64,000 bases of DNA. Origin: an uncultured Chlamydiae bacterium (GTDB lineage Bacteria > Chlamydiota > Chlamydiia > Chlamydiales > JAJFMA01). Shown here piece by piece: positions 2,679 to 54,179 of the stretch; the stretch's first letter is position 1, and each line of letters opens with the position of its first letter. The position numbers were made by a program, and so were the translations under genes. The notes under the pieces were generated by a model. The model worked only from the letters and a program-made list of their open reading frames with translations. It ran no database searches and was not told the DNA's origin. The stretch is taken from positions 54,000 to 117,999 of the forward strand of contig CAWBNS010000013.1 in NCBI GenBank assembly GCA_963790215.1, in the 5' to 3' direction.

Positions 2679-4370
2679 ATGAACTCACCCATCGACCCAA
2701 ATCGACCCTCACAAGAACCACAAACAGAGACGACGACACCCCCCATCGTTTCCGCAGAAAACCTACCTCCGAAAGCACTAGCTAAACACATCGTAATCGA
2801 AGTCCCTCCAAAACATACCTCCCCGCTAATCGTCAAACCCGCGCCCCCACCAAGGTCTAGAGAGCTGTTAGAGAAAAAAATTGTCCTGCTAAAACAAAAA
2901 TACGATCAGATTCAAAACGAATTTGAGCGAACAGAAATCCCTCATGAGAAAATCGCCTGTTACATATCCATGAAAACAATCAAAAATCAAATTTCCTACA
3001 TCAAAGCTGAAAAAGATGCGGTAAAAGCAGAAGAGCACTCGCTCATCATGAAGACCATCTATAAAGGATTTGACAAGGCTTGCCAAATCCTAAACCCATT
3101 CGGCCAAGTGTCTCGCCCTGCCAATACGAGTGTTGCAGGGACGTTTCCGTTTAACCCACTCACCTATGCTGCAGCCCTAGCAGACACCGCTAGTTTTTTC
3201 AGCGATCTATACAAGCTCACAAAGACCACCAAGCAGCTCCAGATTATTACCAGCCTAGAAAAAAAAGGAATAGAACGACTCAGCTCCATAGGCATCAACA
3301 TTCAATCAGAACGAATTTATGGAGATTCATTAGAAGAACGCGGGGAGAGCCGTGTCGAAGCGGATAGTCGGATCCAAAAAATGGAAACAGAGCGCGAAAT
3401 TCTGTTACAATACTTGAAACCCCTAGCCGATCTAAAGAAAAAAGTAGACCCAAGCAGCGCAGGACACCGTTTAGGTGTAGGTGTAGCAAAAATGGGATTG
3501 TCCTATCTCGATGTAGCCCACGCCATCATTGGGTTTGCATCCATCTTTGTCATCGCACAAACGATGGTTGTTACTGGTTTGGCCGTCAGCAGCCTCTCAG
3601 TTCTGTTTACAGGCGCATTGGTCGCTGTAGACTTCCTCGTTACACGCGCCAACCTGAAAAACGCCGTAGCCTCTTTGCACAACCTTCAGTTTCTTTCAGT
3701 AAAGTTTCGGGCTTCTCTCGAAGAACAATGGAAAAAAGTTTCGGATGTCGAAATAAAAAAAGTATCGGAAAACAGCCTAAACCTATTTGAGAACACTGTA
3801 ACGCCCTATCTAAAACAAAAATTAGAAATCAAAATCATCGAGCAGTGGCTCATCCGTGCAAGCGATGTCTTGGTCATTGCTGCCACAGCTGCTGCCGTAG
3901 TTACAACGATTTTAGCCGTTACAACTGTCGGGGCTGTCGCCCTCCCTCTACTCCTTATCCCTATCGCCATTGGTGCCTCAGCAGCAATTCTTATTCTGTC
4001 TTCACCTTTTCTCGCTAAATGGATTGTAGAAAAACAAAATGGGAAAAAGATACCCAAACCAGAAGAATTCCAACAAACGCTATTCAAACAATTGGAAGAG
4101 GAACAAGCCAACTGGAGCGAACTCGTCAGAAACGATCTCCACTATCATACCAATACCTACGTTTTGTACAACCTAGTTAAAGATTACTACCGCGGTGGAT
4201 TATCCATGGGACCACAAGAATGGGCACAGAGCCTAGTCGGTCCCCAATCCGCTGAAGCCCGCCGAGCCTTCGACAAAGCCCTAAACCACAAAATGCTCCA
4301 TCACGAAGCACGACGACTCACTGTTCGACAGATCGAAAAAATGGAAGCGAGGGAGAAAGATAAGCGATAG
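2679..4370 (+). CDS. Coiled-coil membrane protein, Inc-like, paralog B
   Basis: ATG preceded by TAGGAG. Architecture matches the upstream ORF: hydrophobic block 1 (IIGFASIFVIAQTMVVTGLAVSSLSVLFTGALVAVDFLV followed by RANLKNAVASLHNL) and bilobed block 2 (VLVIAATAAAVVTTILAVTTVGAVALPLLLIPIAIGASAAILIL). The C-terminal end NHKMLHHEARRLTVRQ is conserved. Confidence 0.6.
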   Translation: MNSPIDPNRPSQEPQTETTTPPIVSAENLPPKALAKHIVIEVPPKHTSPLIVKPAPPPRSRELLEKKIVLLKQKYDQIQNEFERTEIPHEKIACYISMKTIKNQISYIKAEKDAVKAEEHSLIMKTIYKGFDKACQILNPFGQVSRPANTSVAGTFPFNPLTYAAALADTASFFSDLYKLTKTTKQLQIITSLEKKGIERLSSIGINIQSERIYGDSLEERGESRVEADSRIQKMETEREILLQYLKPLADLKKKVDPSSAGHRLGVGVAKMGLSYLDVAHAIIGFASIFVIAQTMVVTGLAVSSLSVLFTGALVAVDFLVTRANLKNAVASLHNLQFLSVKFRASLEEQWKKVSDVEIKKVSENSLNLFENTVTPYLKQKLEIKIIEQWLIRASDVLVIAATAAAVVTTILAVTTVGAVALPLLLIPIAIGASAAILILSSPFLAKWIVEKQNGKKIPKPEEFQQTLFKQLEEEQANWSELVRNDLHYHTNTYVLYNLVKDYYRGGLSMGPQEWAQSLVGPQSAEARRAFDKALNHKMLHHEARRLTVRQIEKMEAREKDKR

Positions 4371-4384
4371 GAAGTGATGGCGAG

Positions 4385-5022
4385 GAGCGTTTATGCCTTT
4401 TCAACACAGAGGCACAGAGGCTCACAGAGATGCTATAGAAACGCGAGTTTTGGATAAGCCAGTCTTGGAAATAGCTTAGAATAAGTTATTTGAGTTGAAA
4501 AAAACTTCACAGGTTCAGGCTAAGATAAAGTTTTTGTGATTATGCAATTGATAACAAGCTCATTACGACAGGAAGACCCTCGTAGAGGGTCTCTGAATGT
4601 AGCCCACCGTGAACCTGCGAGTGAAGCGAAGACAGGTGTAACGGTGGGAAAATACGTCGAAAACCTATTGCACCCCCGAAGGGGTGTGCCTCAAGCTATT
4701 TGTAATCAACGAGCTGAGGCACTCTCGTTCGAGAGTGCGAACCCTATTTTGCCCATATTCCCACCGTTACACCTGTCTTCGCTGACGCTCGCAGGTTCAC
4801 GGTGGGCTACATTCAGAGACCCTCTACGAGGGTCTTCCTGTCGTAATGAGCTTGTATCAATTGCATAATCACAAAAACTTATCTTAGCCTGAACCTGTGA
4901 AGTTTTTTCAACTCAAATAACTTATTCTAAGCTATTTCCAAGACTGGCTTATCCAAAACTCGCGTTTCTATAGCATCTCTGGGAATCTCTGTGTCTCTAT
5001 GTTGAAAAAAGCATAAGCGCCC
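4385..5022. repeat. Outer hairpin element of the CACAGAG type, split by insertion of the 525-bp foldback element
   Basis: 4385-4440 (..gcgtttatgccttttcaacacagaggcacagaggctcacagagatgctatagaa) is the imperfect reverse complement of 4966-5022 (ttctatagcatctctgggaatctctgtgtctctatgttgaaaaaagcataagcgc..). The two arms would abut at agaa|ttct if 4441-4965 were removed. Confidence 0.75.
4441..4965. mobile_element. Non-coding foldback (MITE-like) element, copy 1: ~208-bp inverted arms and a 111-nt loop
   Basis: 4441-4648 is the near-perfect reverse complement of 4760-4965. Termini are acgcgagttttggataagcc / ggcttatccaaaactcgcgt. A second copy lies at 10084-10607. Only palindrome-artefact ORFs are present. 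The repeat is certain; mobility is inferred. Confidence 0.65.
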
Positions 5023-5076
5023 CACACAATCACTTTCTGCTGATCGCTCATCCTGCTTCATCTTTTTTTTTATTCT

Positions 5077-5115
5077 CCATCCTTTATCCTTCATCCTTTA
5101 TCCCTCATCCCTTAT
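5077..5115. repeat. Tandem direct repeat, about three units of (c)tcatcc(t)ttat
   Basis: The sequence reads ccatcctttat / ccttcatcctttat / ccctcatcccttat. The reverse complement (ATAAAGGATGA) resembles the CAGGAT/AAGGAT unit of hairpin elements elsewhere. A related half-motif (cttcatcctttat) occurs near 29790. Confidence 0.6.
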
Positions 5116-5146
5116 AGTCGAAATCTAAACTAAGGGAGCCGTCTAT

Positions 5147-5905
5147 ATGCCATTGTGGAGAGGATTATTGCTATTGTGTCTGATGACAAGCACTATGCTC
5201 TCTGCTTACACAACCTCCAAAATATCAGGAGCCGGTATTGGTGCTGGCGCTCCTCCTCCCCCAACAACACCACCCCCGATCAATACAAAGCTCTCTCCTA
5301 ACCCAAAAAAGGTGACCCGCCCCAAGCCTAATGTCCATGCCAAATACCTAGCCAAGCCCTCCGCAGCGGTCGGTCTCGTACCTCAAAATCAATCAACCTC
5401 GACAGAAAATCTCACTGGCGTACGCCCTGACCTGCAAATTGACGTACACCTTTTCGCCCCACAAGACGAACGATTCGGTCTGACCGTCGCAAAAATGGAA
5501 GAAGTACTGCTCCACGAACTCCACCTATGCCGCATCAAAAGTGGACAAGAAGCAACCATAAACAGCAGCCAGCCAAGACCACACCTCCTCCTCGAAGCTT
5601 ACGTTCAACCAATCAATGACTACTACGCCGTTTTCATGGATATGCGCCTGATCGAAGCCGCTTGCCCTAATCGTATCACCCTCAGACCTGGAGAAGTTTT
5701 TCAGGGAATCACCTGGGAACGCAAACAATCTTTCTGCACAGAAAAATACGACATCACAGCCGTCGTTTTACAAAAAACCGAAGACATGGTGATAGAATTC
5801 TCCACTAAATACCTCAGCGATCAGCCCGCACCACCCATCCCTCCCCAAGCCGTCACAAGAATGCCCTCTAAACCCGTAAAGGCTCCCCCTCCAAAAAATC
5901 GTTAA
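5147..5905 (+). CDS. Hypothetical secreted proline-rich protein
   Basis: AAGGGAG RBS. The N-terminal signal-like segment is MPLWRGLLLLCLMTSTMLSA. Pro-rich tracts occur at both ends (APPPPTTPPP; PAPPIPP..KAPPPK). No recognisable domain. Confidence 0.55.
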   Translation: MPLWRGLLLLCLMTSTMLSAYTTSKISGAGIGAGAPPPPTTPPPINTKLSPNPKKVTRPKPNVHAKYLAKPSAAVGLVPQNQSTSTENLTGVRPDLQIDVHLFAPQDERFGLTVAKMEEVLLHELHLCRIKSGQEATINSSQPRPHLLLEAYVQPINDYYAVFMDMRLIEAACPNRITLRPGEVFQGITWERKQSFCTEKYDITAVVLQKTEDMVIEFSTKYLSDQPAPPIPPQAVTRMPSKPVKAPPPKNR

Positions 5906-5964
5906 TTTGATATTAAATAGCTATTAAATTAGAATAAACATAACTAATTAAGGAGGGTTCTGCT

Positions 5965-6702
5965 GTGGCTAAAAAACAAAAGTTTTTTACCGAGGAATCT
6001 GCAGCGATGCTCGGTGACTGGTTAAGAGACAGCCAGATCGTAGATCTACCAAAACCTGAACAGGATCAAGCAGAAGCCCGTGCTTTAAAAAAATTATTAG
6101 ACGATTATAGCGCAGCCATTTCCAAAGGTTACCATCTCGTAATGCACGAAATCGCCTCAGACCCTGTGAAAAAAAACCACCTCAACGACTTTCGTATCGA
6201 CACCAATATCATCAAACAAATGCACAATGCAGAAGATGCGAGCAAGCTACTGCAAGAGCACGGTGTCCTACAAGGCGTGCTTGGTATCTCCGGCGAAACT
6301 ATGGGAGAGATGAATCGCATTGCCTGTAACCTCTACGACCAGAAGAAATACGATCAAGCCTGCTGGATTCTTCAGTATATGCTCTTTCTGAATCCCTATG
6401 TTTGCTACCTCTGGCAAGAGCTGGGACTCTGCTGCCAAGCCTTAAATCAATGGGACGAAGCCTTCTGGGCCTATGGAGTCGCCATCAACTGCGACCCACA
6501 TGAAAAGGAAACCTATAGCCTAGCCGTAAAAGCCAGTCTAGACCTAAAAGACTATGAAAAAGCCCGCGAGTTTGTTCAGGGCGGACTCGATCGCTTCCAA
6601 CGTCAATTGCCCAATCAAAAAAACGAGATCAAAGAATTTCTTGAAGATTTAAAAGAATACATCATGGCGCATGAACACGGGAGGATAGAAAATGTCGGTT
6701 AG
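5965..6702 (+). CDS. Type III secretion class II chaperone (SycD/LcrH/Scc2-like TPR protein)
   Basis: GTG start with AAGGAGG RBS. The segment GVLGISGETMGEMNRIACNLYDQKKYDQACWILQYMLFLNPYVCYLWQELGLCCQALNQWDEAFWAYGVAINCDP follows the SycD/LcrH TPR pattern, recalled from family knowledge rather than a search. Confidence 0.7.
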   Translation: MAKKQKFFTEESAAMLGDWLRDSQIVDLPKPEQDQAEARALKKLLDDYSAAISKGYHLVMHEIASDPVKKNHLNDFRIDTNIIKQMHNAEDASKLLQEHGVLQGVLGISGETMGEMNRIACNLYDQKKYDQACWILQYMLFLNPYVCYLWQELGLCCQALNQWDEAFWAYGVAINCDPHEKETYSLAVKASLDLKDYEKAREFVQGGLDRFQRQLPNQKNEIKEFLEDLKEYIMAHEHGRIENVG

Positions 6703-7855
6703 CATCAGCGGAGGTTCGCCAGAACCATTGAAACCAGTAGGATCTAAACCTATCAACCCTGCGTTTATGGCAGAATTATCAGGCGTATTAGCGAAAAATA
6801 CAAAAAAATTAGAAGGAAAAACTAACAATCCAAATGAAGCTCTCCAGGATGTCAAAGCGCATAATCCGGAATTCTTGCATGCTGACCAAGTCTTTATCGA
6901 TGGAGCTGCCAAGGGCAACGAAAACTCAATAAAACGAACTACAACAACGTTCGCCGCCATTCAAACAGGACTCGCTAGATTACCTGGAAGGGCAGCAAGA
7001 AAGGCACGTGCTTTTAGAGCTATGGCGGGTCAAGGACTTTCAAATCTATTTTCCAAAAAAGTGACCAACTCACCAGAAGCAAGTCAGAAAACCTCCATAC
7101 TTGCATCCCTTCATTTGCCAAAGTTTGGAGGTAAAAAGAAAATCTCTGTGCCAGCAGCTATTGCCATCCCAACCCCACCATCCTTAGAACAAAAAGAGGC
7201 GAAAAAGGAGCAATTACTGATCCCTAGCGATGTTGTCAATCGGTTCCATAAAGATGGATTGATCAATAAGGACCAGCGCGAAGAGCTCAAAGCACTACTT
7301 GCCCACAAAGACTATCCAGAAACGCACACGATACTTCTTTCTTGGATCAATAATAATTCGGCTCCGGTAAAACCAGGAAACCTCGAATTACAAGATTATC
7401 CGGCGTTATTACTAGAGGAAAGAATTGGGTCATTCGAAAAGCAGGTGTCATTTGGAGATCGGATTGCCAACGATTCCAGCATTCCTCAAGCCTGGAAGAG
7501 TACTTTGGCGCATAAAGCTAAGGACTATGAGCACGCGCGTTATCTAGCTAATGATTTTGATGCCGAGATGGAGGCCCAATTTGCTAGCGCGGGAAAAGAC
7601 AGCTCGCGACTACCCAAAACTGCTACTGCAGCTTCCTATGAGGACGCCGTCAATACGGCTCTAAAAATCTATCAAGAGTATGCCAAAGCGATGGGCGTGA
7701 ACATAGAAGAGAATCCATCCCTCAAGCTAGCTAAGGATGAGTCACCCAGAGCACAGCTCTCGGCTCTCGAAGCCGTTATTCATGACAATCTAGCCGCAAA
7801 ACGAGATAAAATCGGTGAGACTCTACAAATTCTTCTCGATAACCTCGAAGAGTAA
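6692..7855 (+). CDS. Hypothetical protein translationally coupled to the T3SS chaperone (candidate T3S substrate)
   Basis: The ATG overlaps the chaperone 3' end by 11 nt and has a GGGAGGA RBS. The protein is hydrophilic, with no TM segment and no recognisable domain. Confidence 0.55.
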   Translation: MSVSISGGSPEPLKPVGSKPINPAFMAELSGVLAKNTKKLEGKTNNPNEALQDVKAHNPEFLHADQVFIDGAAKGNENSIKRTTTTFAAIQTGLARLPGRAARKARAFRAMAGQGLSNLFSKKVTNSPEASQKTSILASLHLPKFGGKKKISVPAAIAIPTPPSLEQKEAKKEQLLIPSDVVNRFHKDGLINKDQREELKALLAHKDYPETHTILLSWINNNSAPVKPGNLELQDYPALLLEERIGSFEKQVSFGDRIANDSSIPQAWKSTLAHKAKDYEHARYLANDFDAEMEAQFASAGKDSSRLPKTATAASYEDAVNTALKIYQEYAKAMGVNIEENPSLKLAKDESPRAQLSALEAVIHDNLAAKRDKIGETLQILLDNLEE

Positions 7856-8030
7856 GGATAATCAGCGTCTCTGTCCGTGTTTGAAGAAGAATTTCACCAA
7901 GGCCGTATTGTAAAGCAGCGCTGCCGGGCTCGAGTCTTTTTGAAAAGGGGGAATTCTAGCATCTTCAGGTTAGTCTCAGCCATCCGATGATTTGATAATT
8001 CAACCTAAATTCTTAGCCTGAAAGAAAAAA

Positions 8031-8333
8031 TTAAAGGAAAAGGCGATAATCAATCTTAAAAAGTTCAGCCAATCGCTTGGCAAGGCTCTTACCGATAGGT
8101 CTTTTTCCATGCTCCATAAGAGAAATATTCGCCTGTTTAAGCCCGAGCATATCTCCCAATTCCTTCTGAGTGAGATCTTCTCTATATCGAAGACCCTTTA
8201 GCATTGATGCAGCTTGGGAATCGCTTCCTCTAAGTAGGCGAATGGCCTCTTCCGCAGACATCGGAGCGTCTTCGCGGTTACAAAAACTAACATCCTTCTG
8301 CTTAATAGGGTGCTTTCTCATGTGTGCCCGCAT
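8031..8333 (-). CDS. XRE-family HTH antitoxin (HigA-like)
   Basis: HTH segment LTQKELGDMLGLKQANISLMEHGKRPIGKSLAKRLA. It lies downstream of and overlaps a RelE-like toxin gene. It is a paralog of 42015-42401. Confidence 0.7.
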   Translation of the reverse strand: MRAHMRKHPIKQKDVSFCNREDAPMSAEEAIRLLRGSDSQAASMLKGLRYREDLTQKELGDMLGLKQANISLMEHGKRPIGKSLAKRLAELFKIDYRLFL

Positions 8334-8614
8334 AATATACCTCTATTGTTTTCTCTATTTTGCTGATAATCCGCCAACAGACTACATAAGTAGGCCGACC
8401 TTTTTTTGAGATGACAGTGGTAATCTTCACTGTTCATCTTAGTATAGTTAGGCCAGTTACTTCGATACGGACCTAGGCCTGACAATTCCGCTAACAACAA
8501 ATCCAGAGCATTTCCCGCTGCGCCTTGAATAAGCCCCTTTGCTAGAGCTTTTTTCGCTTGTCCTACGAGTGTATAAGTCCACGCCTCATCCGGCATAGCT
8601 AGATTATATATCAT
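8302..8614 (-). pseudogene. RelE/ParE-superfamily toxin, frameshifted at an A7 (plus-strand T7) run
   Basis: The listed ORF 8318-8614 ends ..HCHLKKRSAYLCSLLADYQQ... Removing one A from the run at 8401-8407 gives HCHLKKGRPTYVVCWRIISKIEKTIEVYYAGTHEKAPY*. This matches the paralog 41746-42018 (HCHLKKGKPTYVACWKVIDKENQLIEVYA). Confidence 0.7.
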
Positions 8615-8815
8615 TCATTGATATATCTCAAATCTTTTTGTAGCTGTGTGCTGGGGGCAATGCAACTAAAGGCATGGTACAGGCATACGCATGTTGTGAC
8701 AAGAAAACCTCGAAGTTGTTATTGGATTTAATGGTCAGTCATCTGCCGTTTTGTCAACTGTACTAGACAAAAAATCATCAAATTTGTAAGGTGTAGTTTG
8801 CAGTCAGGAGACCCC

Positions 8816-10018
8816 ATGCTCGAAGAACTCGTTTCGATCCATCAAGAAGTTATGCTAAGAACCCCGCAAAAATTTCATCGATATCTTTTTCCTAAGATCA
8901 ACTGGAAGGCCTTGGGTCTTTGTATTTTAGGAGACCGAGGAGTGGGAAAGACAACTCTCATTTGCCAAGACCTTTTAGAACGGTATCAATCACCAGCACG
9001 GGCGCTATATTTATCAGCCGACAATATCAACGTTGTTTCTATGGGCCTGTTCAATATTGCCAAATATTATTTTTCTCATGGTGGAGAAGCTCTTTATATT
9101 GACGAAGTGCATAAATATCCAAATTGGTCCATTGAAATCAAAAATATCCTCGACACATTTAAAGACAAACAAGTGATCTTCTCAGCCAGCTCATCGGTTG
9201 ACCTGAATCAAAGCAAAGGAGATCTCTCTCGAAGAGTCGTCTACCATCGTCTATTGGGACTCTCGTTTCGGGAATATCTTCTTTTAGCTCTTAACCTTCC
9301 GCTTCCTGAACTTACCTTTGAAGACATAATAAAAAGGCATAGTTCAATTGCCTCTGAATTTAGCTCTAAACAGCTATTAAAGCACTTTCACGACTACTTA
9401 AGGCATGGTTACTATCCATTTTTCATGGAAGGAATCGAAGACTATCTGTCCAAGGTGAACAATGTGATCGAGAAGGTACTTTTTGAAGACCTTGCCGTAG
9501 TCTACAATCTACGCCAGACAACATTACCTGTTCTTAAGAAACTCCTTTGGCTTGTCGCTACATCCAATGGACTGATCCCGAATATAGATAAACTGAGTAA
9601 AAACCTTGGAATTTCTAGAGAACTTGTTTACACCAGCTTAGAATATTTAAGTCATTCAGGACTGCTAAACGATGTTTTTACTGCCGTGACTGGGAACAGT
9701 CTAGTACGTAAACCGAGCAAGATCTATCTAAACAACTCGAACTTGCTTTGCGCAATCAATGGTTCGCTAAAGCTCGAAGCCGACGTTGGAGGTATTCGAG
9801 AAACATTTTTCGTTAATCAAGTTGGTAACCTTCACAAAGTTATTCTACATGATAAGGGCGATTTCTTAGTTGATAGCCAATATGTGATCGAAGTCGGCGC
9901 TAAAGGAAAGACGACTAAGCAGATTAAAAATGAATCAAATGCCTACTTGGCTGTCGATGATATTTCAGTCGGCTTTGGCCCCAAAATCCCTCTCTACCTA
10001 TTTGGTCTGCTCTACTAG
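8816..10018 (+). CDS. AAA+ ATPase (AAA_14 / DUF4143-type)
   Basis: Walker A is LGDRGVGKTTL and Walker B-like is ALYIDEVH. Size and layout are typical of DUF4143 ATPases. ATG at 8816 is preferred over the listed TTG at 8798. Confidence 0.6.
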   Translation: MLEELVSIHQEVMLRTPQKFHRYLFPKINWKALGLCILGDRGVGKTTLICQDLLERYQSPARALYLSADNINVVSMGLFNIAKYYFSHGGEALYIDEVHKYPNWSIEIKNILDTFKDKQVIFSASSSVDLNQSKGDLSRRVVYHRLLGLSFREYLLLALNLPLPELTFEDIIKRHSSIASEFSSKQLLKHFHDYLRHGYYPFFMEGIEDYLSKVNNVIEKVLFEDLAVVYNLRQTTLPVLKKLLWLVATSNGLIPNIDKLSKNLGISRELVYTSLEYLSHSGLLNDVFTAVTGNSLVRKPSKIYLNNSNLLCAINGSLKLEADVGGIRETFFVNQVGNLHKVILHDKGDFLVDSQYVIEVGAKGKTTKQIKNESNAYLAVDDISVGFGPKIPLYLFGLLY

Positions 10019-10083
10019 AAATAAGACACAACATAACATGAATTATCAGAACTTTATAACAAAGTAGCGTCCATCCCTACCAA

Positions 10084-10607
10084 ACGCGAGTTTTGGATAA
10101 GCCAGTCTTGGAAATAGCTTAAAGTAAGTGATTTGAGTTTAAAAAACTTCACAGGTTCAGGCTAAGATAAGTTTTTGTGATTATGCAATTGATAACAAGC
10201 TCATTACGACAGGAAGACCCTCGTAGAGGGTCTCTGAATGTAGCCCACCGTGAACCTGCGAGCGAAGCGAAGACAGGTGTAACGGTGGGAAAATGCGTCG
10301 AAAACCTATTGCACCCCCGAAGGGTGTGCCTCAAGCTATTTGTAATCAACGAGCTGAGGCACTCTCGTTCGAGAGTGCGAACCCTATTTTGCCCATATTC
10401 CCACCGTTACACCTGTCTTCGCTGACGCTCGCAGGTTCACGGTGGGCTACATTCAGAGACCCTCTACGAGGGTCTTCCTGTCGTAATGAGCTTGTATCAA
10501 TTGCATAATCACAAAAACTTCACAGGTCCTGAACCTGTGAAGTTTTTTTTCAACTCAAATAACTTATTCTAAGCTATTTCCAAGACTGGCTTATCCAAAA
10601 CTCGCGT
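10084..10607. mobile_element. Non-coding foldback (MITE-like) element, copy 2
   Basis: Same termini, arms and loop as 4441-4965, in the same orientation (the asymmetric loop reads the same way). The copies differ by a few substitutions and indels. Confidence 0.65.
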
Positions 10608-11486: not shown

Positions 11487-12542
11487 CTAAGATCCGATTA
11501 ATTCCAGATGCGCAACCGGCTGTAACCCTTCCAGGCTGACGCCTGGGCAGTCTGTTAGATCCAATCGCTTAAGTCGCGAAAGTGTGGCCAACTTGATCAG
11601 CGCTTTGTCTGTTACACCAGAGCACTCACTCAACGAGAGAGTTTCTAAAGATCGCATTTCAGCAAGATGGACAATCCCTTGCTCGGTAAGGTGAAATAGC
11701 CCGCCCCCGAGATCTAGCTCCACTAGGCTATCCAGTAAAGGCGAAGTTGATAGGATGTGTAGGCCTTGATCGGTCAGCTTTTTGGAACCAAACAAGCGCA
11801 AGCGCTGCAGCCCCCTGCACATTTCTGAATGCGCAATAAACCCGAGTGAGGCGTCAGTAAGAAGATCTAGATGGCTCAAATCAAGACTGTGCCACTCTCT
11901 CAGGCTGTGGGCCAAGTTGGCGACTCCGCGATCGGTCACTAGCAAGCAGCCGCCAATGTTCAAGTCGACCAGATGAGTTAATTGCGTCGAATGAGCTAAA
12001 GAACTAAGTCCTTTGTCTGTAATTTCGGCGCAGAGGTGCAAATTAAGCCTCTCCAGTGCTGTCCAATCGGGCCAGCGAGCTAACATATCCAACGCTTCAT
12101 CAGTTACGTCTGTACAGCCTTCTAGGTTGAGTCGTTTAAAATCAACGGTGGGTTCTCGTTTAGGAGTGTCAAAATACGGCCGATGCGAAGATCCAAGTGG
12201 TCCATGACCGACTCTACGATGTAATTTTTCTATAATCTGATAAACATTAGCATCAGTGTGGAGTCCTAAGAGTCGCAGCTGTGCACCTAAATTATTAAGT
12301 GCCAATCGGTCGATGTTGCGGATCTCGGTTTGATGCCGTAAAAGAAAACTCTCTACCTGCTGTCCTATTTCCTCAGGGGTGGATTTGTCGTTCTTCTGCA
12401 TAGCCTCAGCTAGGTCATAGGACAAATCGGCTAGTTGACGGTGAAACTGCGACGGCATAGCCGAACTCTCAGGGTAAAGATATCTTGGTAGTAGCATGGC
12501 TGGCACGTTTTTTTCAATGGGGAAGTAAAGGCTTTGTGGCAT
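11487..12542 (-). CDS. Eukaryote-like leucine-rich repeat protein (RNI/FBXL-type LRRs)
   Basis: About 25-aa repeats, e.g. LNLEGCTDVTDEALDMLA, LNLHLCAEITDKGLSSLA, LNIGGCLLVTDRGVANLA, LSLSECSGVTDKALIKLA, LDLTDCPGVSLEGL. No clear F-box. The first 50 codons of listed ORF 11487-12692 read through a palindromic repeat. The start at ATG 12542 is tentative. Confidence 0.65.
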   Translation of the reverse strand: MPQSLYFPIEKNVPAMLLPRYLYPESSAMPSQFHRQLADLSYDLAEAMQKNDKSTPEEIGQQVESFLLRHQTEIRNIDRLALNNLGAQLRLLGLHTDANVYQIIEKLHRRVGHGPLGSSHRPYFDTPKREPTVDFKRLNLEGCTDVTDEALDMLARWPDWTALERLNLHLCAEITDKGLSSLAHSTQLTHLVDLNIGGCLLVTDRGVANLAHSLREWHSLDLSHLDLLTDASLGFIAHSEMCRGLQRLRLFGSKKLTDQGLHILSTSPLLDSLVELDLGGGLFHLTEQGIVHLAEMRSLETLSLSECSGVTDKALIKLATLSRLKRLDLTDCPGVSLEGLQPVAHLELIGS

Positions 12543-12546
12543 ACAA

Positions 12547-12649
12547 ATTCGTGCCCTTGCCCGTGTGCGTGTGCGTGCCCGATCAGCTTGATCGCTATGC
12601 GGGATAACCTTGTTGTGCAAGTTTTCCGGGCACGGGCAAGGGCACGAAT
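12547..12649. repeat. Hairpin element (GTGCCC/GTGTGC units)
   Basis: attcgtgcccttgcccgtg..cccg (from 12547) is complementary to cgggcacgggcaagggcacgaat (ending 12649). It lies in the divergent promoter region between the LRR and GH9 genes. Confidence 0.7.
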
Positions 12650-12734
12650 GTAGGCAACGCAACGATAAATTGACATGAAACAAAAATATCAATTATTCTA
12701 TTAGTGATAGATAAAACAAAATAGGACAATTACT

Positions 12735-15700
12735 ATGATGATCCTGTTTAGAACTATTTCCTTTATTTTCATTCTCTCTCTGTTTAATTTACATGCCGCC
12801 GATACTCGGCCTACGAAAACTTCCACGGTCAAGATTATGAATGCAGGGGGAACAAGTGGAGAGATTCAGGATTTCCTGTATTTGCACGACACGGACTTGC
12901 AAAAGCGAGAATATGTGGTTGGCTCTGTCTCCCTAACGGCTGGGGACCAGACGGTTAAGGATAAGGGGGATGGAACGTTTACCGGCAGTGGAACGGGCAA
13001 GTTCGACTACGTGACCGGGCAGTTTTATGTTAAGTTTACCAAAATTCCGCCAAAGAGCACTCCGATTACGTTAACATTTACTTACTATCGGACGGCTTCA
13101 ACGACGACTACAACCCCTACAACTCCTACGGCTCCTCCCTCGACTCCGACAACAACAGGGGCCACTACTGACACGTTTGTACCGGCAACAGGTCGGGATC
13201 GATTGCCGGCTGATAAACAAGGTGCTTTCCCCGTTATGATTCCTCAATACAACGGAATCAATCAGCTGCTGCTTTTGTCTAATCAGTGGGTGATTGTGGC
13301 GGTGGACCAGACGGCTGATTTAACGAAGCAGATCCAAAATTTTATAGACGCTGATTCTTCATTTAAAGGCATTGATTTAGCGGCGGCACAGGCAAAATGG
13401 CTGTCTACTTCGTTAGCCGACCAAAAGCCGGATTATACCTCCATGAAGACGAATATTTTGGCGCCGGTGAACAAATATTACGTTAAAGCGCGAGAGAAAA
13501 CGAGCGAACGGCAAATGGCCGATCCTGCTTTCTTTTCAATCACAAGCAGTGACGATCCCGATTACTCACAGGGGCAAACACCTCTGCAGGTTGCGCATTT
13601 TATCACTTCACTAGGAAGGGCTGACTGGGCAGGCAATAATGCGCCTTACTCTACTTATGCGGTTTATTCTTATCTTCAATTCCCCTTCCCTATGAAGGAT
13701 GGTAAAACTTATACAATCTCTGCAGATGACGGTAAGTCTGTTACATTCACCTATGATGAATTCCGCAGCGTATCCCGATCCATCAAAACAAACCAGATCG
13801 GCTACTTACCATCGGGTAAGAAATATGCGTATTTGGGCGGATATTTGTGGGATTCGGGTCCTATGGATTTTTCGGCTGCAAAAACGTTTCATGTGATTGA
13901 TGTGAAGACAGGTACTGAAGTGTTCTCTGGTAATATTTTGGCTAAAGGCGCCAGTGCACAATCGGGTGAAAACCTGTATGAGATGGATTTATCTGGTTTG
14001 ACGACAACGGGTGACTACTTTATTTCGATTCCTGGCGTGGGTCGTTCATGGACATTTCACGTAGGTAAGGATGCGTATGGAGAGGCCTTCTACACGATGA
14101 TTCGTGGGTTGTATATGCAGCGCAGTGGAATGGCTGTCGGGCCTCCTTACTCCAACTGGCCTCGCAAGGCATATCATAATGTACCGGTTTACGAAAACGA
14201 CATTATTGAGCTTACACCACGAAACCTTCGCAAAAGTGTAACGCCCTATACTACACCTGAGACCTGGTCAGAGATAGCCGATTTTGATGTCTCTGGTGCT
14301 AGCATCGACAAGACTAAGGTTCATCAGGATGGTACGGGTGGTTGGTATGATGCGGGCGATTATCAAAAGCGATTATTTCATTATAACAACTTAATGGCAC
14401 TTTTATATCTGTACGAATTAAAACCGCAGAATTTTTCTGACAACCAATTGAATCTGCCTGAATCGGGAGATGGAGTTCCAGATATCTTAAACGAAGCTGA
14501 GTGGGGTTTAAAGGTCTGGAGCAATAGCATGGATGAGAATGGGGGTGTTTCTTCGCGCCTGCTTTCTAATTCACACCCTGCTCCGGATGATCCTGCTTAT
14601 CCTTATTCGTATGGAAAACGAACACGGTATGCTTCGTTATCGTTTGCAGCGGCCGCAGCGCAATTTGCACGTTTAGTTAAACCGTTCAGCGCAAGCAAAT
14701 CGAGTCAATGGCAGGCTTTAGCCGAGAAGGCGTATGCCTTCGGGACTAATCCAGCAAACAAATTAACGAACTATGTGATGCATGCGAAGACAAATAGGGG
14801 AACTGGAACTGCTTATACGATGACGTACACTGAGGACGACAATTTTAATGGTCCTTTCCTGGCTGGTGCCAAGATGCAGATGTATATGCTCACCAAAGAT
14901 AAATCGTATCTAGATGGGCTGACAACGTTGCTTGCACAGATGCAATCGCCAACAAACAAAGTTCCTAAGACTGTAACACCAGGTAAATTGGAAACGCAGA
15001 ATACCGCCTTATTACCGGGAACTTGGCCTTATACAAACCGTGATTTTATTCACTGGTTATTGGCTCCTGTTATTTTGGACACTGAAATTCAAACGGCTTT
15101 AGGTGCCACTGTCACGGCTACTTGGGCGAAAACCTTTACAAATATAGCGGATGGATATTTGAAATTTTACAGTACGCATCCTTACCGCATTTCGTGGGAT
15201 CCTACTAAGAATACAGGATTGGCCTGGGGCGCTAGTGCGATGACGAATCCGGCTGTGTTCTTGATTCTGGCCTACTACACAACTAAGGACCAAAAATACC
15301 TGGATGCTGCGGTAGCTGACGCAGACTTTATGCTCGGGGCTAATCCGATGGGTATGTCATGGACCACAGGGATGGGTTTTGTCTATCCCGTAAAGAACCA
15401 CTATCGGTTCAACGATTACAATGCGTGGATGGATCCTTTCCCAGGAATCATGGTTTATGGGCCGAATGAGCTAACCTTAAAAGATTTTGATGGAATCTGG
15501 TATCCAAAAGATACAGACGGTACGGTGCATAACTTTTTGTCGGCTAAAATGCTAGGGTCGGATGGTAAGGCGAGTATTCCTGTTCTACGTCGTTGGGTCC
15601 CTCACAACTACTTCAGCGTGGGGCAGAATGAGTTCACCATCTGGGAGACAAATGCGGGTGCGATCTTTACGTATGGGTATTTGTTAGATCAGCCTTGGTC

Positions 15701-15773
15701 GCCTAGCAGCGATCTGAAGAATCGCAAACCTCGTGATGAGCGGTTGCTGTTTGGGTTGTGGTATTTGCCCTAA
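12735..15773 (+). CDS. Secreted glycoside hydrolase family 9 (endoglucanase-like) with Thr/Pro linker and Ig-like CelD-N domain
   Basis: Signal peptide MMILFRTISFIFILSLFNLHA. GH9 signatures GGWYDAGDYQKR and NEFTIWETNAG. The Ig-like N-domain pattern is IKTNQIGYLPSGKKYAYL. Confidence 0.85.
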   Translation: MMILFRTISFIFILSLFNLHAADTRPTKTSTVKIMNAGGTSGEIQDFLYLHDTDLQKREYVVGSVSLTAGDQTVKDKGDGTFTGSGTGKFDYVTGQFYVKFTKIPPKSTPITLTFTYYRTASTTTTTPTTPTAPPSTPTTTGATTDTFVPATGRDRLPADKQGAFPVMIPQYNGINQLLLLSNQWVIVAVDQTADLTKQIQNFIDADSSFKGIDLAAAQAKWLSTSLADQKPDYTSMKTNILAPVNKYYVKAREKTSERQMADPAFFSITSSDDPDYSQGQTPLQVAHFITSLGRADWAGNNAPYSTYAVYSYLQFPFPMKDGKTYTISADDGKSVTFTYDEFRSVSRSIKTNQIGYLPSGKKYAYLGGYLWDSGPMDFSAAKTFHVIDVKTGTEVFSGNILAKGASAQSGENLYEMDLSGLTTTGDYFISIPGVGRSWTFHVGKDAYGEAFYTMIRGLYMQRSGMAVGPPYSNWPRKAYHNVPVYENDIIELTPRNLRKSVTPYTTPETWSEIADFDVSGASIDKTKVHQDGTGGWYDAGDYQKRLFHYNNLMALLYLYELKPQNFSDNQLNLPESGDGVPDILNEAEWGLKVWSNSMDENGGVSSRLLSNSHPAPDDPAYPYSYGKRTRYASLSFAAAAAQFARLVKPFSASKSSQWQALAEKAYAFGTNPANKLTNYVMHAKTNRGTGTAYTMTYTEDDNFNGPFLAGAKMQMYMLTKDKSYLDGLTTLLAQMQSPTNKVPKTVTPGKLETQNTALLPGTWPYTNRDFIHWLLAPVILDTEIQTALGATVTATWAKTFTNIADGYLKFYSTHPYRISWDPTKNTGLAWGASAMTNPAVFLILAYYTTKDQKYLDAAVADADFMLGANPMGMSWTTGMGFVYPVKNHYRFNDYNAWMDPFPGIMVYGPNELTLKDFDGIWYPKDTDGTVHNFLSAKMLGSDGKASIPVLRRWVPHNYFSVGQNEFTIWETNAGAIFTYGYLLDQPWSPSSDLKNRKPRDERLLFGLWYLP

Positions 15774-15785
15774 CCAGGTTGCTTA

Positions 15786-15961
15786 GAAATCACATTATGC
15801 TGTTTTTCGACGCAAAGACGCAAAGACGCGAAGGTTCGCAAAGATAGTCTAAAAGACATAAAAATTTAAAAAACTAAAATTAGTTTGTTTGTAAAGAACC
15901 GTCTTTGCGAACCTTCGCGTCTCTGCGTCTTTGCGTCGAAAAACAACATAATGTGATTTTT
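15786..15961. repeat. Hairpin element (CGCAAAGA units), ~58-bp arms and ~57-nt spacer
   Basis: aaatcacattatgctgtttttcgacgcaaagacgcaaagacgcgaaggttcgcaaaga pairs with tctttgcgaaccttcgcgtctctgcgtctttgcgtcgaaaaacaacataatgtgattt. It lies between convergent genes. Confidence 0.85.
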
Positions 15962-15986
15962 AAAGAACCTTAACTTGAAAGTATCG

Positions 15987-18407: not shown

Positions 18408-19430
18408 GTGATGATTAAAACAATAATAACGGTTGCTATTATAATGTCATCTTTCTCTTATGCTGATAATATAAGAATCAATCAAATTCAATTAAAAGGG
18501 ACACACAATAGTTATCATGTCCTAAAGCCCTATAATCCAGTGGAATGGCTCCCATGGGATCTACACATCACCGATTGGAATTACACACATGCACCTATTA
18601 CTGAACAACTTACCAATCAAGGAGTCCGGCAAGTCGAACTAGATATCCACATGGGCAAGGATGGATTCCCCGTCTATCACCTAACAGGCATCGATAATGG
18701 CAGCACCTGCAAAGATTTAACCGCCTGCCTAATAGAAGTGCGTGACTGGTCCATTGCCAACCCACACCATCAACTTTTGTGGCTCCTGATTGAACCTAAA
18801 GACACGGATGATCCCGGGAACTACTTCGGCGAATGGATCGCAGACCATTTGGATACCATTGAGGAGAACATCGAGAGTCTATTAGGGTCTGATAATATAT
18901 ACAAGCCAAGTGAGCTTCGAGGCAGTCACCCAACGATGCGGGACAGAATAGAGAAGGAAGGTTGGCCTACCTTGGACGCAACACGTGGAAAGATCACCAT
19001 TGTCTGGAATGCAATAGGTTCAAACAAAAAGGCTTATGCCAACTATAAGCCTGAGGCCTCTCAACTTCTGATGCTCCTGAAAGCAACACCTGAAGAGCTA
19101 ATAGGGGATTCTCCTTCGCCCTACGATATGGTCTACACCGAGGTGGGTGACCCCTTAAAGGGAAAGTCCTTGATCACAGAACTCGTCGAGAAAGGCTTTA
19201 TGGTGCGCACCAGGGCTGAAGAGCGCGGTCTGGATAGTAACGAAGCGAAGAAGGGAAAACGAGACCGTCCTGAAGCAGCTCTCGAAAGCGGTGCGCAGAT
19301 TATCTCAACGGATATTCCCGCCAAGGTGCCAGAAACAGACTATTTCTTTGCGATTCCCGGAGACCATGTCTCGCGGTGCAATCCGGTCAATTCCGATGCT
19401 GAGTGCAAACCGGAATTGATTGAACCGTAA
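18408..19430 (+). CDS. Secreted PLC-like phosphodiesterase (PI-PLC X-domain-like)
   Basis: N-terminal signal-like segment. The IQLKGTHNSYH motif is characteristic of the PI-PLC-like family. Confidence 0.55.
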   Translation: MMIKTIITVAIIMSSFSYADNIRINQIQLKGTHNSYHVLKPYNPVEWLPWDLHITDWNYTHAPITEQLTNQGVRQVELDIHMGKDGFPVYHLTGIDNGSTCKDLTACLIEVRDWSIANPHHQLLWLLIEPKDTDDPGNYFGEWIADHLDTIEENIESLLGSDNIYKPSELRGSHPTMRDRIEKEGWPTLDATRGKITIVWNAIGSNKKAYANYKPEASQLLMLLKATPEELIGDSPSPYDMVYTEVGDPLKGKSLITELVEKGFMVRTRAEERGLDSNEAKKGKRDRPEAALESGAQIISTDIPAKVPETDYFFAIPGDHVSRCNPVNSDAECKPELIEP

Positions 19431-19837
19431 AAAGAAAAAAACAGGATGATGAGGATCGCCTTCGCGGCAGGATGGGCAGGATATTGGTTGCTTGACTGAG
19501 TTCATGGCGGTTCAAAGTATGCTGTTTTGATTAAACGCAAAGGCGCAAAGAAGATTTTTGAAACGCTTTTTTTGAGCGGAGCTCAATAGGTCAGAACCGG
19601 CACCGGACAGCAAGGGCGGTCATAATTTTGACATCTCTGTAGCGCCCTTGCTGGTCTTGGTGCCGGTTCTCCTCAGCTTGCTTCGCAAGAACTGTATACT
19701 GTTCCCAACTCTTTCTTTGCGCCTTTGCGTTTAATCAAAACAGCATACTTTGAACCGCCATGAACTCAGTCAAGCAACCAATATCCTGCCCATCCTGCCG
19801 CCGAAGGCGATCCTCATCATCCTGTTTTTCTTTTTAA
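19428..19837. repeat. Composite nested hairpin element, ~125-bp outer arms
   Basis: Outer arms 19428-19553 and 19712-19837 contain CAGGAT units followed by CGCAAAG units. An inner inverted repeat (IR) is formed by ggtcagaaccggcaccggacagcaagggcg (about 19589-19618) and cgcccttgctggtcttggtgccggttctcc (about 19643-19672). Confidence 0.85.
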
Positions 19838-25632: not shown

Positions 25633-25723
25633 AAAACAATTCTCTCGTTTATAACTTATCACCATTATTATAACACAAATCAAATTGATAATCTAAACAT
25701 CGCATAAAGCACGATATTTAATT

Positions 25724-25892
25724 ATTTTTCAGGATAACAGGATGAACAGGATAAAACTAAAAACGAATTGAGCTTTAAACGATAAAAACGATATAACGAT
25801 AAAAAGGATAAAATCCAATTAGCATAAGGCCGTATATTAAAAGCTAAATTCGTTTTTAGTTTTATCCTGTTCATCCTGTTATCCTGAAAAAT
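25724..25892. repeat. Hairpin element (CAGGAT units), ~45-bp arms
   Basis: atttttcaggataacaggatgaacaggataaaactaaaaacgaatt pairs with aattcgtttttagttttatcctgttcatcctgttatcctgaaaaat. Confidence 0.85.
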
Positions 25893-25990
25893 AAAAAAAA
25901 TGAATTTTGCTAAAAGCACGTTCCTGTCCCGATTTGCTACCAAATTGATCATGAGATATACTGATTCCTCAACGATCTGAGAGGAGCACT

Positions 25991-36416: not shown

Positions 36417-36516
36417 AATCATGAGCGTCTCTGTGCACTCTGTGGTGATTAATTTTTCAATAGTGTTTCAAAATTTTACCACAGGGATCACAGAGTGCAC
36501 AGAGACGCTCATGATT
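36417..36516. repeat. Hairpin element (CACAGAG units), ~30-39-bp arms
   Basis: aatcatgagcgtctctgtgcactctgtggt pairs with accacagggatcacagagtgcacagagacgctcatgatt. It uses the same unit type as the outer element at 4385-5022. Confidence 0.8.
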
Positions 36517-47916: not shown

Positions 47917-47997
47917 AAAGGACAGCAGGGACGACAGGGACATCAGGGACTATGTGCGACGTCCTTGCAGTCCCTGATGTCCCTGCAGTCCCTTTTG
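47917..47997. repeat. Hairpin element (CAGGGAC units) in the nuoE-nuoF spacer
   Basis: cagggacatcagggact (47935-47951) pairs with agtccctgatgtccctg (47969-47985). Outer arms are imperfect: aaaaggac / gtcccttt. Confidence 0.75.
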
Positions 47998-49273: not shown

Positions 49274-49289
49274 TACAAAGATAGAAATT

Positions 49290-49395
49290 AAAAAAAATCA
49301 GGATAAGCAGGGTCGCAAGCGGCAGGATAGGCAGGATAAAGTTTTTTATCCTGCCTATCCTGCCGCTTGCGACCCTGCTTATCCTGATTTTTTTT
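49290..49395. repeat. Perfect 51-bp-stem hairpin (CAGGAT units) flanked by A8 and T8, in the nuoF-nuoG spacer
   Basis: aaaaaaaatcaggataagcagggtcgcaagcggcaggataggcaggataaa, a gttt loop, then the exact reverse complement. Confidence 0.9.
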
Positions 49396-49468
49396 ACACA
49401 ACTCATCTTCTTCTTAAAAGTTTTATTGTTTTTCGTGTTTTTGTGTTTAAGAAAATGGCAGGTCTCAT

Positions 49469-51652: not shown

Positions 51653-51658
51653 GATACG

Positions 51659-51761
51659 CCTTGGAGTGCGGTGACTTGTTTGTCAACATAGGCGCTTTGC
51701 GCCATTTCAGAGACTTATGTTTTAGGATAACAAGTCGCCGCACTCCAAAGCGCTTCGCGCC
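51659..51761. repeat. Hairpin element of the TTGGAGTGCGG family in the nuoG-nuoH spacer
   Basis: ccttggagtgcggtgacttgtt pairs with aacaagtcgccgcactccaaag. It is followed by cgcttcgcgcc, which shares a 16-mer with 29768 in the opposite orientation. Confidence 0.8.
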
Positions 51762-54063: not shown

Positions 54064-54179
54064 TTTTTGGAGTGCGGCGACTTGTCGCCGCTTTTATACA
54101 GCTCGACTTGTCGAGCTGCCAGAGGCATCGACAAGTCGATGCCTTTGAAAGCGGCGACAAGTCGCCGCACTCCAAAAAA
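54064..54179. repeat. Compound hairpin element with four CGAC(TT/AA)GTCG palindromic cores, in the nuoK-nuoL spacer
   Basis: The outer arms are ttttggagtgcggcgacttgtcgccgcttt and aaagcggcgacaagtcgccgcactccaaaa. Inside are agctcgacttgtcgagct and ggcatcgacaagtcgatgcc. Confidence 0.9.

Follow-up and report, generated by a model that had tools for sequence, protein, structure and literature searches.

The 64-kb window analyzed here, the whole of a stretch lying within a 186-kb contig of an uncultured Chlamydiae bacterium, contains two copies of a near-perfect palindrome that is very probably a non-autonomous foldback DNA transposon, that is, a MITE (miniature inverted-repeat transposable element), derived from an insertion sequence (IS) of cluster II of the IS982 family. 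An earlier note on this DNA had treated the palindrome as an element that it did not recognize, and had regarded a clear match to a described IS family as evidence against its view; the termini do clearly match such a family, IS982 cluster II. The two copies located in that note were found again by reading the sequence and by a repeat search, and its view that they represent a mobile foldback element without coding function, of which there are at least two copies, is supported, with no Pfam match for the open reading frames (ORFs) inside the element. The features of both copies, and of an older hairpin that encloses copy 1, are the following (positions within the window; TIR, terminal inverted repeat).

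4441–4965, no strand: predicted foldback MITE, copy 1, whole element; 525 bp, near-perfect palindrome
4441–4460, plus strand: left TIR of copy 1, ACGCGAGTTTTGGATAAGCC, of the IS982 cluster II type by sequence; AA precedes it at 4439–4440
4946–4965, minus strand: right TIR of copy 1, exact reverse complement of the left repeat
4441–4648, plus strand: left arm of copy 1, 208 nt, 97.1% complementary to 4760–4965
4649–4759, no strand: asymmetric center of copy 1, 111 nt, a degraded palindrome with two local hairpins
4670–4689 and 4719–4738: the hairpins of the center of copy 1, GCACCCCCGAAGGGGTGTGC and GCACTCTCGTTCGAGAGTGC, respectively
4760–4965, minus strand: right arm of copy 1, 206 nt
10084–10607, no strand: predicted foldback MITE, copy 2, 524 bp, in the same orientation as copy 1
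10084–10103, plus strand: left TIR of copy 2
10588–10607, minus strand: right TIR of copy 2
10518–10542, plus strand: templated quasi-palindrome mutation, in the right arm of copy 2 only; 8-nt replacement, ATCTTAGC to CACAGGTC
4398–4440, plus strand: left arm of the older outer hairpin enclosing copy 1, with three CACAGAG motifs; 27 nt past the stop codon of ORF 2679–4370
4966–5008, minus strand: right arm of the older outer hairpin

Between the arms of copy 1 there are 203 matching positions, 2 mismatched ones and 4 columns with gaps, in agreement with the near-perfect reverse-complement arms of ~208 bp given in the earlier note; those of copy 2 (10084–10289 and 10400–10607) are 92.5% complementary. 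The copies, spaced 5.6 kb apart, differ in 17 alignment columns (96.8% identity by BLAST), and the recent mobilization proposed in the note is accordingly recent in a relative sense only, the copies being already ~3% apart. Folded as RNA, copy 1 has a minimum free energy (MFE) of -428.6 kcal/mol, compared with -133.7 +/- 6.3 for shuffled sequences (z = -47), a difference much larger than chance would produce, and copy 2 has an MFE of -402.8 kcal/mol. The termini and the two small spacer hairpins are as the note described them, and so is the 111-nt size of the asymmetric spacer; what had been missed is that the spacer is itself a degraded palindrome, with a self-complementarity of 66–75% that extends to a 14-nt core. 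The two small central hairpins are set apart by two paired C:G-to-T:A changes. Likewise, the ends assigned to the element hold, but in copy 1 the inverted symmetry runs on unnoticed for another 43 nt on each side, at 88% complementarity, through the arms of the outer hairpin.

Its length of 525 bp puts the element among the largest in the MITE size range, and it has no capacity to encode a transposase. No transposase remnant or homology to an IS interior was detected in the arms in tblastn searches with six IS982 transposases (E > 0.05), and Tandem Repeats Finder detected no tandem sub-repeats within 4441–4965. A blastn search of plasmids and phages in 'distant' mode returned no match to the element. 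Rfam gave no match in the whole window at gathering thresholds and, at E <= 1, only two sub-threshold microRNA-hairpin matches (19.6 bits with a cut-off of 70, and 16.5 bits with a cut-off of 60), which are chance matches.

Evidence for the identity of the element comes from its ends. The terminal 20-mer ACGCGAGTTTTGGATAAGCC is identical in 16 of 20 positions to the left ends of the cluster II members IS1599 and ISNeu1 (ACCTGAGTTCGGGATAAGCC; ISfinder ends as printed in Fayad et al. 2020, Fig. S1). Members of the IS982 family are ~1 kb long, with 5'-AC ends, which are kept in 57 of the 69 ISfinder members, and with direct repeats that are absent or 2–10 bp in length, none being listed for some of the ISfinder members; three members, ISPasp1-3, come from Parachlamydia sp. 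(Fayad et al. 2020). In five IS982 copies annotated on plasmids (those of Nostoc, Cyanobacterium, Piscirickettsia and Leptospira, and IS1592 of Actinobacillus), we found the end pattern AC[CG][TC]GAGTT..GATAAG and target-site duplications (TSDs) of 6–8 bp, namely TATGTA, TGATGGTA, TAACCTA and TATTTA. Scanning JGI metagenomes for the terminal 20-mer gave 14 loci, and elements sharing the 20-nt ends are present on 13 metagenome contigs besides the window. In one of these loci, L012, the exact 20-mer at 1641–1660 follows the stop codon of an ORF of 298 aa at a distance of 20 nt. This ORF has a score of 247 bits (cut-off 130) with the NCBIfam model NF033520 for the IS982 transposase and also matches the Pfam domain DDE_Tnp_1_3. 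The 20-mer forms the right end of this IS (20/20), and a degenerate left repeat is located 991 bp away; given the transposase ORF and this partner repeat, L012 contains a complete IS982-family IS of ~991 bp, whose nearest named relatives belong to Ktedonobacterales. Because of the likeness to IS1599 and ISNeu1, the identity with the end of the L012 element and the end pattern of the annotated IS982 copies, the termini of the palindrome can be assigned, from their sequence, as bona fide IS982-family (cluster II) TIRs.

IS982 transposases were found neither in the window nor in the 20-mer loci other than L012. An exact search with the 28-mer end gave no match among genome contigs and viral contigs, and the 20-mer had none in viral contigs. 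The scan of viral contigs with a degenerate IS982-end pattern, which serves as a specificity check only, yielded 33 matches, most of them cut by contig ends, and five of the 33 are within ~100–210 nt of an IS982 transposase match; the matches also include a non-palindromic 164-bp IS982-ended MITE on a putatively viral contig from IMG/VR (L041).

The metagenome loci contain short elements closed by the same inverted 20-mer ends as the window element:

57 bp: L015
83–86 bp: L011, L013 and L014
113 bp: L005 (1513–1625)
164–167 bp: L002, L003, L009 and L010 (L010: 1989–2155)

All of these relatives are palindromic throughout and have only the first 20–25 nt in common with the window element. In five of the nine complete short elements, perfect TSDs of 6–7 bp abut the ends (TTAAAA, TAGAATA, TATGTA, TTTTTA and TTCTTA); since a chance 6-mer match is expected at ~1/4096 per element, these duplications are genuine footprints of IS982-type transposition. 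The other four short elements lack a clean duplication. The short members are modular, with three internal hairpins in L010 and two in L005 closed by the terminal repeats, and the difference between these two is a palindromic expansion seeded at GGATAAGCC. Among the contigs with short relatives, the taxon was tested for L009, which is chlamydial: its glycogen phosphorylase shares 65–70% identity with proteins that bear the names Chlamydiales or Chlamydiia. On L015 there is a gene for a MurC-Ddl fusion, which is typical of chlamydiae.

On the metagenome contig L004, a different MITE of 162 bp (3753–3914) has ends, ACCTGAGTTTTGGGTTT, that resemble those of ISPasp1/2 of Parachlamydia, with 40-nt arms and a 5-bp TSD, TATTA. 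Solo 20-nt ends occur at L008 445–464, where a 516-aa ORF takes its final seven codons and its stop codon from the end, and at L004 10080–10099, where the end precedes the start codon of a 1158-aa ankyrin-repeat protein by 34 nt. Palindromic elements cluster in the same intergenic regions, as indicated by nested palindromes located ~20–300 bp from the IS982-ended MITEs (L002, 4512–4675; L003, 6453–6633; L011, 965–1127; L015, 3192–3366).

The history of the arms can be read from the two window copies. Both share two arm asymmetries (GATAACAAG vs GAT-ACAAG, and G-AAGCG vs GTCAGCG) and hence descend from one ancestor that was already palindromic. Arm identity is 97.1% and 92.5% within the copies and 94.8–96.2% between them, the former being no higher than the latter, and in none of the 17 differing columns is the change compensated on the opposite arm. 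With two copies only, this is weak evidence of neutral decay as opposed to maintenance of the stem. Selection for the structure, which the earlier note had considered, is disfavored because the arms decay without compensation, down to the 92.5% of copy 2. The replacement of ATCTTAGC by CACAGGTC in copy 2 yields a perfect 10-bp local hairpin, CTTCACAGGT-CCTGA-ACCTGTGAAG, and is a classic example of quasi-palindrome (template-switch) mutation. Templated mutation can also account for the paired differences that separate the central hairpins, without selection on RNA.

Both copies adjoin gene ends. Copy 1 starts 70 nt past the stop codon of ORF 2679–4370, and copy 2 takes up almost all of the space between two convergent ORFs, whose stop codons are at 10018 and 10631. 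As the earlier note had stated, neither copy is abutted by a TSD. The left flank of copy 2 is CTACCAA and its right flank is GGATTAG. Copy 1 has the self-complementary CTATAG on both sides, at a distance of 2 nt from its ends; the flanks are inverted rather than direct because this copy sits exactly at the symmetry center of the older hairpin, and, with CTATAG being self-complementary on both sides, a 6-bp duplication at the hairpin apex would fit copy 1 if AA/TT is counted as part of the element. An exchange of flanks through inversion between the copies was considered as an explanation of the missing TSDs, and the flanks contradict its prediction. The outer hairpin has no second instance in the window, where the CACAGAG motif alone recurs (36417–36516); being unique there, it was rejected as a member of a repeat family in which an empty site might be found. 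An empty-site comparison with the nearest genomes, the metagenome-assembled genome CAYUJS01 (L001 and L054; 74–77% amino-acid identity) and JAHZTO01 (L057; 80%), found that synteny breaks exactly at the elements, which leaves no orthologous empty site for comparison.

Taken as an IS982-derived MITE, the element would be bound at both ends and moved in trans by a DDE transposase of the IS982 type encoded elsewhere in the chlamydial genome. The 208-nt arms would be dispensable for movement, given that relatives with the same ends are only 57–167 bp long. The arms would most likely have originated through an inverted duplication, by foldback priming or a template switch, in which one IS or MITE end together with ~260 bp of adjoining DNA was turned into the arrangement IR-X-X'-IR'; the direct support for this origin is limited to the templated patch in copy 2 and the palindromic expansions among the short relatives. 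Degradation of the center would have made the palindrome tolerable to the cell; in Escherichia coli, central asymmetry stabilizes long palindromes. After the copies separated, the arms would have decayed independently, so that the long stem would be a historical by-product and not a selected structure. Insertion just downstream of gene ends, where both copies are found, would be the least harmful, and copy 1 would have inserted at the apex of an intergenic hairpin that was already there. An effect on transcripts, through termination or RNase III cleavage, is possible.

Several observations weigh against the derivation from IS982. The sole autonomous element found with an identical end is that of Ktedonobacterales, not of Chlamydiota, and the search for a cognate IS982 transposase in this genome covered the window. 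Beyond the first 20–25 nt, there is no likeness to any sampled IS982, which leaves an origin of the arms from an IS interior unproven. The copies are only two and 5.6 kb apart, and the second may be segmental or recombinational. Neither of the window copies has an unambiguous TSD. Finally, at least eight further long palindromes in the window lack IS982 ends, so that such structures may owe their formation or maintenance to some process that acts across the genome and is not IS982 transposition.

Other explanations must be considered alongside an IS982-derived MITE. The palindrome could be a selected structured element, acting either as RNA (a bidirectional terminator, an mRNA-stabilizing stem, or an RNase III/double-stranded RNA substrate) or as a DNA cruciform, with the transposon-like ends being secondary. 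Its extremely stable fold is compatible with such a role, as is the location of both copies directly 3' of genes, with copy 2 exactly between convergent stops, and the genome has many other intergenic hairpins, some of them inside the nuo operon. The paired C:G-to-T:A changes in the central hairpins might even be taken as compensatory, but changes of this appearance also arise by template switching, which is directly seen in copy 2, and the absence of compensation across the 17 differing columns, with pairing in copy 2 down to 92.5%, argues in the opposite direction. Moreover, what is conserved at other loci is the 20-nt ends and never the interior, and Rfam offers nothing beyond chance matches even at the relaxed threshold. 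We consider this explanation unlikely. A hairpin element of the REP/RAYT or IS200/IS605 (PATE) type, which an HUH tyrosine transposase would mobilize in single-stranded form, would leave no TSD, in line with the window copies, would consist of a single hairpin as the whole element does, and could end up in the apex of another hairpin like copy 1. Nevertheless, the ends are true IS982-matching TIRs and not subterminal hairpins, relatives with the same ends bear 6–7-bp TSDs, no HUH transposase was seen near any copy, and there is no conserved tetra- or pentanucleotide on one flank only, all of which makes this type of element highly improbable.

The two copies, in the same orientation and 5.6 kb apart, might also delimit a composite MITE-flanked transposon (4441–10607) carrying the 5.1-kb segment 4966–10083; MITE-flanked cassettes are known from Acinetobacter integrons, and the segment holds genes of an accessory type (a toxin-antitoxin-like pair, an AAA_14 ATPase, a TPR protein and others), with GC content down to 0.40 at 8.5–10 kb. 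However, the outer flanks have no common direct repeat (TATAGAA vs GGATTAG), a second instance of the 5.1-kb segment was not found, and nothing found contradicts a chance or local-hop arrangement, so that we regard a composite transposon as very unlikely. The possibility raised in the earlier note that the palindromes are an artefact of assembly or of chimeric reads, with the inverted duplication made in vitro, is close to negligible. Copy 2 and the palindrome 19431–19835 are indeed points where independent Logan short-read contigs from the same sample end, implying that short reads do not bridge the palindromes. Yet both copies are internal to the contig and have unique flanks; they share the two arm asymmetries and the asymmetric center while each has private mutations; and the same architecture and termini recur in several independent JGI metagenomes. 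We conclude that the element is not an artefact.

The IS982-ended copies are not the only palindromes in the window, which also contains the following:

19431–19835: unrelated foldback of 405 bp, with arms of ~122 nt that are ~99% complementary, a 160-nt center and an MFE of -297 kcal/mol
15776–15970, 25717–25899, 36417–36516, 47927–47993 and 49289–49396: intergenic palindromes with arms of 25–69 nt that are 92–100% complementary
51657–51752 and 54064–54178: palindromes in intergenic regions of the nuo operon with the common core GGAGTGCGG(C/T)GACTTGT

The unrelated foldback has no IS982-type ends and lies between the convergent stops of ORF 18408–19430 and LigA; it is inside this palindrome that the Logan contig from the same sample terminates. 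The five palindromes between 15776 and 49396, two of which are inside the nuo operon, consist of short reiterated motifs (GCAAAGAC, CAGGATA, CACAGAG and CAGGGAC) and often have A-runs and T-runs at their borders, in the manner of bidirectional terminators. The common core of the last two palindromes suggests a separate REP-like repeat family. A broader tendency to palindrome formation, tolerance or co-localization exists in the window and in the genomes of the MITE-bearing contigs.

The gene content of the window, which includes LigA, GlgB, the nuo operon, malate dehydrogenase and citrate synthase, is that of a segment of a bacterial chromosome, with a GC content of 47% and no tRNA genes. LigA shares ~60% identity with proteins that bear the names Parachlamydia acanthamoebae, Parachlamydiaceae and 'Chlamydiae bacterium', from which the host is taken to be an uncultured member of the Chlamydiota. 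A tandem array with 3.4–5.3 copies of a 7/14-nt unit (ATCCTTT / TTTATCCTTCATCC) follows shortly downstream of copy 1, at 5069–5115, and lies upstream of ORF 5147–5905. The toxin-antitoxin-like pair between the copies is composed of an HTH_3 protein (8031–8333) and an overlapping 98-aa ORF (8318–8614), and is followed by the ATPase, of the AAA_14/DUF4143 type (8798–10018); the GC content drops to ~0.40 at 8.5–10 kb, and the region 8031–10018 looks like accessory DNA. Copy 2 is adjoined by the gene of a leucine-rich repeat (LRR) protein, a homolog of which, encoded in a Logan contig, carries the F-box-type family LRR_FBXL15, and next comes a 1012-aa GH9 cellulase-like protein (both in the region 11487–15773). 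These LRR and GH9 genes fit a eukaryote-associated, amoeba-symbiont-like lifestyle.

Among known systems, cluster II of IS982 (IS1599, ISNeu1, IS1592 and ISPasp1/2) shares with the window element the 5'-AC terminal repeat with the cluster II pattern and, through the relatives of this element, the short variable TSDs. The window element differs in having no transposase gene, in its length of 525 bp as opposed to ~1 kb, in an inverted repeat of ~208 nt compared with 11–32 nt in IS982, and in that its window copies lack a clear TSD. IS982-derived MITEs of ~240 bp, MITECca01 and MITECca02, have been described in the Cardinium endosymbiont of Oedothorax gibbosus, where mobilization by the intact parental IS was inferred (PMC9769881). 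They resemble the window element in being gene-less, in having inverted repeats of the IS982 family and in residing in an intracellular bacterium. However, MITECca01 and MITECca02 keep short stretches of the parental ISCca4 beside the repeats and no full-length hairpin has been described for them (PMC9769881), whereas the interior of the window element is one long palindrome unlike any sampled IS; the left end of ISCca4, ACGTGAGTTCGATTAGAC, also differs from the end of the window element.

The Correia elements of Neisseria and further hairpin-forming bacterial MITEs, among them RUP, ERIC and Nezha, are short, gene-less, intergenic multi-copy elements with TIRs and TSDs that can form stem-loops in transcripts, and the RNA hairpins of Correia elements are substrates of RNase III. 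These elements come from other IS lineages, are 100–160 bp long, have imperfect stems and repeats of ~25 bp and, to our knowledge, include none with near-perfect arms of 200 nt. Eukaryotic foldback (FB) transposons possess two long inverted arms and a short center; their arms consist of tandem sub-repeats and their transposase is different. The resemblance of the window element, which has no tandem sub-repeats, to FB transposons is architectural only. Within the literature that could be searched, no account of a family of palindromic MITEs with IS982 ends in Chlamydiota came to light. The window element can be regarded as an unusually long, wholly palindromic member of a family that seems to be spread among environmental chlamydiae. 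IS982-derived MITEs, in Cardinium, and IS982 elements, in Parachlamydia, are already known; what is unusual here is the arms, ~10 times as long as normal IS982 inverted repeats.

The element does not point to a new biological mechanism. With its identification, the hairpin becomes annotatable as a MITE of the IS982 type, which prevents spurious ORF calls inside it, and the MITE palindromes explain the breaks in short-read assemblies of this organism. The series of elements from 57 to 525 bp with identical ends could be used to study the origin of MITEs by palindromization and the tolerance of bacteria to long palindromes. On a more speculative note, it is conceivable, if rather doubtful, that some environmental chlamydiae host a diversifying population of wholly palindromic IS982-ended elements of 57–525 bp, which would grow by repeated inverted duplication instead of internal deletion of an IS, home preferentially to the apices of intergenic hairpins already present and thereby build nested palindromes. 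In E. coli, hairpin-cleaving surveillance of the SbcCD type makes long palindromes unstable. If such a population exists, near-perfect arms of 200 nt together with at least eight other palindromes in 64 kb would imply that this chlamydial lineage lacks or evades surveillance of this type.

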